Shown here piece after piece: positions 39,701 to 41,928 of a DNA stretch of 64,000 nt (the first letter of the stretch is position 1; every line of letters begins with the position of its first letter). Origin of the DNA: Escherichia coli (lineage in GTDB: Bacteria; Pseudomonadota; Gammaproteobacteria; Enterobacterales; Enterobacteriaceae); assembly GCF_044647545.1 (NCBI RefSeq), contig NZ_CP172818.1. One strand, written 5' to 3'. Position numbers and translations under genes: made by a program. The notes under the pieces are model-generated. The model saw nothing but the letters and a program-made list of their open reading frames with translations, had not been told where the DNA came from and ran no database searches.

Positions 39701-41371
39701 GAGGATCTCTTTGGTGGTGGTGACACGATACGCCGCACCGTCACTGGCGGAGACGGTTAACAAATAGCGGCTTGGTTTATCAGCGGCGGGGAGATTTAAC
39801 GCCACATAACCGCTATCGTCGGATACCGTTTCACTGCCTTCCAGCGACACGGGAAAACGTCCGGCATAACGCAAATCGTTACCGACCATTGATAATTGCT
39901 GAGCGCGCAAACTTAACTGCACACGGGCATCTTTTACCGGCTCACCATCCGGGTAGAGCAGTTGCAGTTTGCCGCTGACCGCTTCGCCAGTTTTGAACTC
40001 TTTTTTGTCGAGAGCTAAGCCAATCTCGAAATGTGGCTTGATGTAGTTTGCCACGCGAAAACTACTGCTATAGACCTGATTGCGGTAAGCAAGACGTAAC
40101 TCATAACCTCCGGCAACGGCATTTTCTGGCAGGCGGAAACTCCCCTGCCCGCCATTGCGCGCATCCAGCGTGACATTGATGGTTTGCAACAGACTGCCGT
40201 TAGCGTCCAGCACTGAAAGCTTCGCCGGGGCGCTGACGATGGGGGATGAATGCAACGGATCGTGGAACTCGCGGCCCATCACTTTAACATCGACACGATC
40301 GCCTGCGCGATATAGCGGGCGATCGGTAAAGATATACAAGCGGGTGTTGTAGATTTCACTTTCGTAGAAGAAGTTCTCGGAGACAAAAACGCCGCCTTCC
40401 GCATCTTTACCCAGAATGTATGAGCGTTCCGGCGATATATGTTGTAACTGCAAGGTACCGCTGTCATCGGTCACCCCGCGTGTCATCACGCCAAGACCGT
40501 CAGTCCACAGGATCTCTGATCCCGGCTTCGCTTCACCCTGTATTTTACCTGCGGTCCACACCAGAAGCTCGTTACCTGACACTTTGCTAAGCGCCACGGT
40601 ATCGGAAACAAACACCACCGTCGTCGCCCGATACCCACCTATCATCGCCTCGACGAGGTACAATCCCGGCTCTTGTTTGCCGAGAGGAATATAAATGTTA
40701 CCCGGCTGCGGCGAGATGAAATTGTTGGATGCGCCTTCCAGTTTTACCCCTTGCTGCGGCTCGACCGGTTTAGCCTGCCATAATGGGTAACGGAATTGTT
40801 CCACCAGTGGATATTTTTTCAGCGGTGAAAACTGGCTGTTCTGTACATAACGGGAAGGTTTAACAATGGCATTACCGAGCTGTAATTCGGGTAACGCCTG
40901 AGTCACATTCTGCCGTGACTGAGAAGAGAAAGTACGCTGCATTACACGGCGAGATTTGCCGTACCAGTTATCCCACAGCCAGGTCAGCGTATTGTTTAGC
41001 CCGTCGCCCAGATATTGCGGTTGCACCACAATGCGATGCAGGTTTTTCTGCTGGCGCAAAAATGCCATCGGGTCAGGAATACGATACAGGCGAACGTCCA
41101 CGCCACCGTACTCTTCCATCTGATAGCGTCGATAATCACGCCCCGGCGCTTCCAGTCGCACTTTCGCCTCTTCACTGCTGCTAAAACTGCTGTCAGCGAG
41201 CAAAAAGAATGTTCCCCCGGCGGGCGGCGCATAGTTACTGGAAGGAAGCGAATCATCAGCATTAGCAAGCCCTGTTCCCACAAGAGACAGGCAAAAGCAC
41301 GCTGCTATCGCGCCAGAAAATTTAAACGATAAATGCCAATGAAATTGGGATTGGAATCGTTGGGTATCCAT
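36767..41371 (-). pseudogene. yfaS: Alpha-2-macroglobulin-like protein YfaS (1534 codons) interrupted by one in-frame TAG at 39272-39274; no CxEQ thioester motif
   Basis: Two same-frame ORFs (39272..41386, 704 aa, signal peptide; 36767..39196, 809 aa) separated by a single amber codon. Confidence 0.85.
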
Positions 41372-41928
41372 CGGGTGTCCTTCCATGTCATAAGTTGTTG
41401 CAGACTGACTGCGCGCATTCCGTTGTCAGTTTTCGTGGCGCTTCCGGTGTGGTAGATGACGTAACGCCCCATCCAAACCATTAAGTGCTGGGCATCGCCC
41501 TGATCGAAAAAAATCATATCGCCAGGCAGCGCCTGGTTTATGTCCTGGCCAATAAATTGGCTGTTGTACTGAATCAAATTAATCGCGGTCACATAGGGGC
41601 CAGTTTTTCCGTTCCCCTGATTCCAGTTTTGCGCCAGTTGACGCTGTTCAGGTGTTAGCGTCATTTCAGGCGGCAAATATTGACTTGCTATACCGTTACT
41701 TTTTAGCCATTTGCTGTCGTGAATTTTCAGCGCCTCGTTCGCCGAAAATCGCACCAGGCCCGCACAATCCTGCTGATACCAGCGCGGACTTGGCCCCTGG
41801 CGGAGCTGTTCCTGTGCAATGCGTACAAACCACGCGCGAAACAGCCCGGATTGTTCGACATTCAGCATTTCGCTATGGGCAACAACACAACACAGCCAGC
41901 AAATCAGCGCCAGCAGTCCGTGCCTCAT
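41305..41928 (-). CDS. yfaT: Secreted protein YfaT (DUF1175 family)
   Basis: ORF track starts at 41955; conserved start [11 protein letters not shown] at 41928 (207 aa); start overlaps yfaA stop (ATGA); 3' end overlaps the yfaS start by about 67 nt. Confidence 0.88.

Follow-up and report, generated by a model that had tools for sequence, protein, structure and literature searches.

The yfaT gene lies on the minus strand of a 64,000-nucleotide (nt) stretch of Escherichia coli chromosomal DNA (contig NZ_CP172818.1 of assembly GCF_044647545.1), hereafter the window, and encodes the E. coli orthologue of Pseudomonas aeruginosa MagC (PA4490), a protein with a papain-like fold of the NlpC/P60 type and a complete Cys-His-His active-site motif. 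YfaT is very probably a small exported periplasmic protein acting as the peptidoglycan-interacting partner of a macroglobulin envelope complex, which would consist of YfaA-YfaT-YfaS-YfaQ-YfaP in E. coli and of MagB-F in Pseudomonas. The crystal structure of MagC, published in 2021 (PDB 7BK8, PF06672; Zouhir et al. 2021, FEBS Lett 595:2034), had already made the NlpC/P60-like nature of YfaT known, so that the assignment is correct and not new; for E. coli it changes the annotation from 'DUF1175 protein YfaT' to 'MagC orthologue with an NlpC/P60 fold', a useful change but no discovery. The gene and the parts of its product are located in the window as follows.

41305..41928, minus strand: yfaT, 207 amino acids (aa) and stop codon, supported by its translation, the RefSeq annotation, Pfam DUF1175 (3.6e-58) and PDB 7BK8 (E=9e-103).
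41872..41928, minus strand: predicted Sec signal peptide, residues 1-19, read from the sequence with an inferred cleavage site.
41314..41871, minus strand: DUF1175/MagC domain, residues 20-205, an NlpC/P60-type papain-like core with family-specific additions.
41755..41769, minus strand: D54-C55-A56-G57-L58 motif with the predicted nucleophile Cys55 (codon 41764-41766) at the N-terminus of helix 55-66.
41485..41487, minus strand: His148, predicted general base at the start of strand 147-152, aligned with the catalytic His of NlpC/P60 (GDL.FF...H).
41449..41451, minus strand: His160 (Y-H-T-G), predicted third triad residue at the end of strand 156-160.

Residues were numbered from the ATG start codon at position 41928, and the codons of Cys55, His148, and His160 were verified on the raw sequence. 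The original prediction had described a D-C-A-G-L motif with downstream histidines in YfaT, and both peptides it quoted are present in the 207-aa product. Pfam PF06672 (DUF1175/MagC) matched residues 20-205 with 197.2 bits against a cut-off of 27 (profile positions 20-225/226), YfaT shares the three-dimensional structure of MagC, the solved family member, and the Pfam labels in the contig database already name PF06672 'MagC'. Export is predicted from an N-terminus that is hydrophobic and variable in all YfaT homologues of the alignment; the 7BK8 alignment begins at YfaT residue 21, and a signal peptide was predicted for MagC by SignalP (PMC3735191 Table 2). A lipoprotein was considered and rejected, as no Cys is preceded by a canonical lipobox.

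Single-sequence matches to mycobacterial RipB and a P60 domain paired DCAGLVRF of YfaT with DCSGLVRY and aligned the YfaT region ending in YHTGS with GDLIFY..QHVTLYLG...LEASGS. The profile of 89 family sequences matched NlpC/P60 autolysins, CwlO and Acd33800 among them, in their catalytic domains (E ~1e-3) with both motifs in register, including YHTG against YHAG. In the alignments, RipB and Acd33800 both have DCSGL where YfaT has DCAGL, and opposite His160 of YfaT stand a Glu in RipB (LEASGS) and a His in Acd33800 (YHAGD). In the structure model, Cys55 stands at the start of helix 55-66 and the two histidines lie on strands 147-152 and 156-160, the arrangement of a papain-like alpha+beta core with Cys at a helix N-terminus and His on a beta-strand. 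The triad is of the unpermuted Cys-His-(His/Glu/Asp/Gln) kind, set in D-C-S/A-G and G-D-L-x-F-F...H motifs that keep register with RipB, Acd33800, and CwlO, and the nearest structural relatives of YfaT were all peptidoglycan peptidases or amidases, with no protein-cleaving proteases among them. Four independent lines of evidence, among them these alignments and profile matches and the triad conservation described below, bore out the NlpC/P60-type site that had been proposed. A search of YfaT against NCBIfam returned nothing useful, its best match being RipB at E=0.087.

With the Pfam NLPC_P60 profile (PF00877), YfaT scored 20.6 bits (E=4.4e-4), below the cut-off of 23, and two other DUF1175/MagC members scored 28.4 bits (P0250, which passes) and 22.9 bits (P0171, which nearly does). 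YfaT is therefore a member of the NlpC/P60 superfamily, or clan, and not of PF00877 proper. The low score, and the weakness of a four-residue motif as evidence by itself, would suit a chance resemblance in which a D-C-x-G and His pattern arose in an unrelated fold; this explanation was ruled out by the register-matched alignments to RipB and NlpC/P60, the conservation within the family, and the structural relatives. The original prediction would have fallen with an unrelated fold or with non-conserved Cys and His positions, and neither was found. It had also left room for a transglutaminase-like site beside the NlpC/P60 one, and here only the latter stood: neither profile matches to Transglut_core (PF01841) or Tgl (PF20085) nor the closest structural neighbours placed YfaT among transglutaminases, and Bacillus-type Tgl (PF20085) scored below the endopeptidases, with a profile match over only 37 residues.

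Compared with the NlpC/P60 D,L-endopeptidases of peptidoglycan (MEROPS C40, clan CA, PF00877; for example MepS/Spr, LytE, CwlO, RipA/RipB, SagA, and the 2evr gamma-D-Glu-L-diamino acid endopeptidase), YfaT has the papain-like core in common, the same Cys...His...His/Glu order in D-C-(S/A)-G-(L/F) and G-D-L-x-F-F...H motifs, and the same placement of Cys at a helix N-terminus and of His residues on adjacent strands. It differs from them in an identity of only 13-21%, in ~70 extra family-specific residues (N-terminal helix 24-44 and the 67-114 insert), in belonging to a family described as inactive (PMC10318531), and in occurring with a macroglobulin and not as a stand-alone autolysin.

The active site was conserved far beyond E. 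coli. Cys55, His148, and His160 were invariant in 35 close homologues, and in a wider set (89-104 representatives, down to 26% identity) D54, C55, and H148 were among the nine columns that were invariant in 89 sequences, at a mean column identity of 19%. D54 and C55 were conserved in 101/101 ungapped sequences and His148 in 102/103, while position 160, at least 90% conserved in the 89-sequence set, was His in 99/104 sequences, with Asp in 3, Cys in 1, and Ala in 1. The conservation check for which the original prediction had called thus came out in its favor. Pseudoenzyme families normally lose their catalytic residues, and a dead enzyme fits poorly with the DUF1175/MagC family because its triad is kept nearly absolutely, as strictly as in working enzymes. 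Within E. coli, yfaT was carried by 5390/5426 complete genomes, its 624-base stretch was 100% identical to yfaT of several of the complete genomes, and the gene is under purifying selection, with dN/dS of ~0.09 between deep lineages and the triad intact in 7/7 strains. Against UPEC69 (L011:5061-5684), the yfaT of the window encodes an identical protein and differs at 14 synonymous sites (dS ~0.11), a striking local pattern that points either to purifying selection or to recombination among lineages.

We propose that the NlpC/P60 groove of YfaT docks a peptidoglycan stem peptide and would thereby place the macroglobulin complex on the cell wall. A triad as conserved as that of a working enzyme raises the further possibility that YfaT has kept a cysteine-hydrolase activity, latent and regulated, that would cleave a peptide bond in peptidoglycan in the manner of a D,L-endopeptidase or amidase. 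The competing explanation is a true pseudoenzyme, in which YfaT/MagC binds peptidoglycan and never cleaves it, tethers or stabilizes the macroglobulin complex, and keeps its Cys and His residues for ligand binding or folding. A 2023 survey of papain-like enzymes, which places PF06672 in an NlpC/P60/CHAP/amidase cluster, speaks for the latter: its passage on the family sums up Zouhir et al. 2021 as an 'inactive DUF1175' that binds peptidoglycan (PMC10318531). Speaking against it are D54, C55, and H148, without exception in the 89 sequences, and the few replacements of H160 across ~100 sequences. In the crystal of MagC, the catalytic residues reportedly adopt an inactive conformation, but a single crystal form leaves room for an enzyme that a partner or a substrate would switch on. 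Since pseudoenzymes usually drop the residues that DUF1175/MagC retains, we give near-equal weight to gated catalysis and to a purely non-catalytic anchor, each of which may hold with a probability slightly short of even.

Several observations weigh against the role we propose for YfaT. Besides the sub-threshold PF00877 score, the only experimental characterisation of a family member, that of MagC, is cited as finding an inactive, peptidoglycan-binding protein, and in the survey passage that cites it peptidoglycan binding is reported within the family for MagC only (PMC10318531). No enzymatic activity of any DUF1175/MagC member has been reported in the literature, and the ~70 family-specific residues might obstruct the groove. 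Early proteomics did not detect MagC (PMC5764988, PMC3735191), and no stable binary MagC:MagD complex was found in vitro (PMC5764988). Finally, one distant family member with intact DCSGF and YHTG motifs (P0222, L014:8001-8690) had neither a macroglobulin nor a SpoIID gene within 8 kb of it, and some MagC family members may work independently of a macroglobulin.

A role in the envelope is consistent with what is known of the Pseudomonas system, in which the mag operon encodes a periplasmic, inner-membrane-associated macroglobulin complex (PMC3735191, PMC5764988) and in which magD and the mag operon were shown in 2025 to confer protection against VgrG3 and Tae1, type VI effectors that target peptidoglycan, on P. 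aeruginosa (PMC12663445). Bacterial alpha-2-macroglobulin operons are in this sense envelope defence systems. The E. coli literature on yfaT consisted only of screen hits, for example from a Caenorhabditis elegans screen on FAT-7 and lifespan, and offered no mechanism. The CysDuF database paper associates DUF1175 with a coronavirus protease as well as with 'fatty acid synthesis'; the entry looks mislabelled and was ignored.

Cleavage of MagD in vivo (PMC5764988) and the conserved adjacency of MagC-like and macroglobulin genes could also point to YfaT/MagC as a cysteine protease that processes MagD/YfaS itself from 165 kDa to 100 kDa. We consider this very unlikely, as, according to the main text of PMC5764988, the two MagD forms were not markedly altered when magC was deleted, the closest structural relatives act on peptidoglycan, and the stable complex mentioned above was not found. 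The Fig. 6 legend in PMC5764988 is inconsistent with the text on magC and MagD cleavage, which bears on the processing of MagD by MagC.

To place the family in its genomic context, we surveyed distant members that share 28-40% identity with YfaT; L004 and L006 were too short to inform on gene context. At four independent loci, found on metagenome contigs with a GC content of 35-70%, a macroglobulin gene directly adjoined the MagC-like gene.

L003:1951-5631: macroglobulin gene beside a MagC-like gene.
L005:9946-14355: macroglobulin gene beside a MagC-like gene.
L013:1-1869: macroglobulin gene beside a MagC-like gene.
L015:9596-14200: macroglobulin gene beside a MagC-like gene.

Two of these four loci also carried a stand-alone gene of the SpoIID family (L013:3548-4717 and L015:14883-16193), reminiscent of YfaQ in E. 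coli. The recurrence suggests a three-part peptidoglycan-directed module of MagC-like, macroglobulin, and SpoIID-like proteins. In their TED domain, all four distant macroglobulins had PYGC(V/T)EQT, the canonical thioester site, which YfaS and MagD lack. Macroglobulins have been split into type I, with a thioester and accompanied by PBP1c, and type II, with no thioester and encoded in the Mag operon. As every one of the four distant partners bears a thioester, the pairing of MagC with a macroglobulin is not restricted to the thioester-less type II. The same result led us to reject MagC as a substitute for the missing thioester. A transglutaminase-like cross-linking role of YfaT is unlikely, and we regard as extremely improbable its specific form, a transglutaminase- or acyltransferase-like YfaT that would make up for the absent thioester by covalently coupling the macroglobulin either to its target or to peptidoglycan.

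A broader possibility, which we put forward tentatively and with less confidence than latent catalysis as such, is that MagC/YfaT is a cysteine hydrolase gated by the macroglobulin complex. It might become active, for example, once an incoming protease or peptidoglycan hydrolase has been caught by the macroglobulin, and would then trim or remodel peptidoglycan locally, jointly with the SpoIID-like partner YfaQ/MagE. If true, the MagC-like, macroglobulin, and SpoIID-like proteins would form an ancient and widespread unit of cell-wall defence and repair, one that also runs with thioester-bearing macroglobulins and so falls outside the division into type I and type II.

The distant members also varied in architecture. 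In P0250 (L015:8001-9599), a BNR/sortilin-like beta-propeller region was fused N-terminal to the MagC domain, and many other family members, at 300-380 aa, were longer by 100-150 residues at the N-terminus, with no Pfam match in the one such extension tested, that of P0171.

In the window, yfaT adjoins the alpha-2-macroglobulin gene in an operon of the mag/yfa type. The operon lies downstream of gyrA on the minus strand, in the order yfaA-yfaT-yfaS-yfaQ-yfaP; PMC5764988 and PMC3735191 describe the order of the mag genes. The other genes of the operon are the following.

41925..43613, minus strand: yfaA (DUF2138, MagB-like), from Pfam DUF2138 (2.3e-285) and annotation.
36767..41371, minus strand: yfaS (alpha-2-macroglobulin, MagD-like), a pseudogene here, with Pfam MG2, A2M, A2M_BRD, and bMG10 and the RefSeq remark 'internal stop'.
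39272..39274, minus strand: in-frame TAG breaking yfaS, CAG (Gln) in most E. coli.
35117..36766, minus strand: yfaQ (DUF2300 and SpoIID-like region, MagE-like), from Pfam DUF2300 (1.5e-90) and SpoIID (27 bits against a cut-off of 23).
34336..35112, minus strand: yfaP (DUF2135, MagF/MagA-like), from Pfam DUF2135 (6.4e-18) and annotation.

The sequence reads ATGA where the stop codon of yfaA overlaps the start codon of yfaT. The SpoIID match makes YfaQ the predicted second peptidoglycan-hydrolase-like fold of the operon, in agreement with the expectation of two hydrolase-like folds alongside the macroglobulin, and because proteins of the NlpC/P60 fold and of the SpoIID-like kind are both encoded beside it, the operon ties the macroglobulin to the cell wall. 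A search of YfaS for a CxEQ thioester motif found none. The operon differs from its P. aeruginosa counterpart in having five genes, as opposed to six (magA-F), with no MagA-like gene upstream of yfaA, and in the stop codon that the macroglobulin gene carries in this strain. The start of yfaS differs between records: the K-12 start at 41371, 67 nt inside yfaT, keeps the signal peptide and was followed here, and the start at 41281 in the PGAP records would lose it (the region 41281-41386 overlaps the 3′ end of yfaT).

As the macroglobulin partner is cut by the stop codon, the complex is probably incomplete in this strain. The exact 57-mer with the yfaS TAG was common to only 50/5426 complete genomes. 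Other strains carried independent lesions different from this TAG, namely a yfaS stop at codon 428 together with a yfaQ frameshift in RM13516, a yfaS pseudogene in K-12, a yfaS stop together with a yfaA frameshift in 98193, and a stop in yfaQ in AW1.7; the operon was intact in the parts examined of AQ15 and UPEC69. The macroglobulin operon thus seems to have broken down time and again in E. coli, yet yfaT was intact in all 7 strains sampled.
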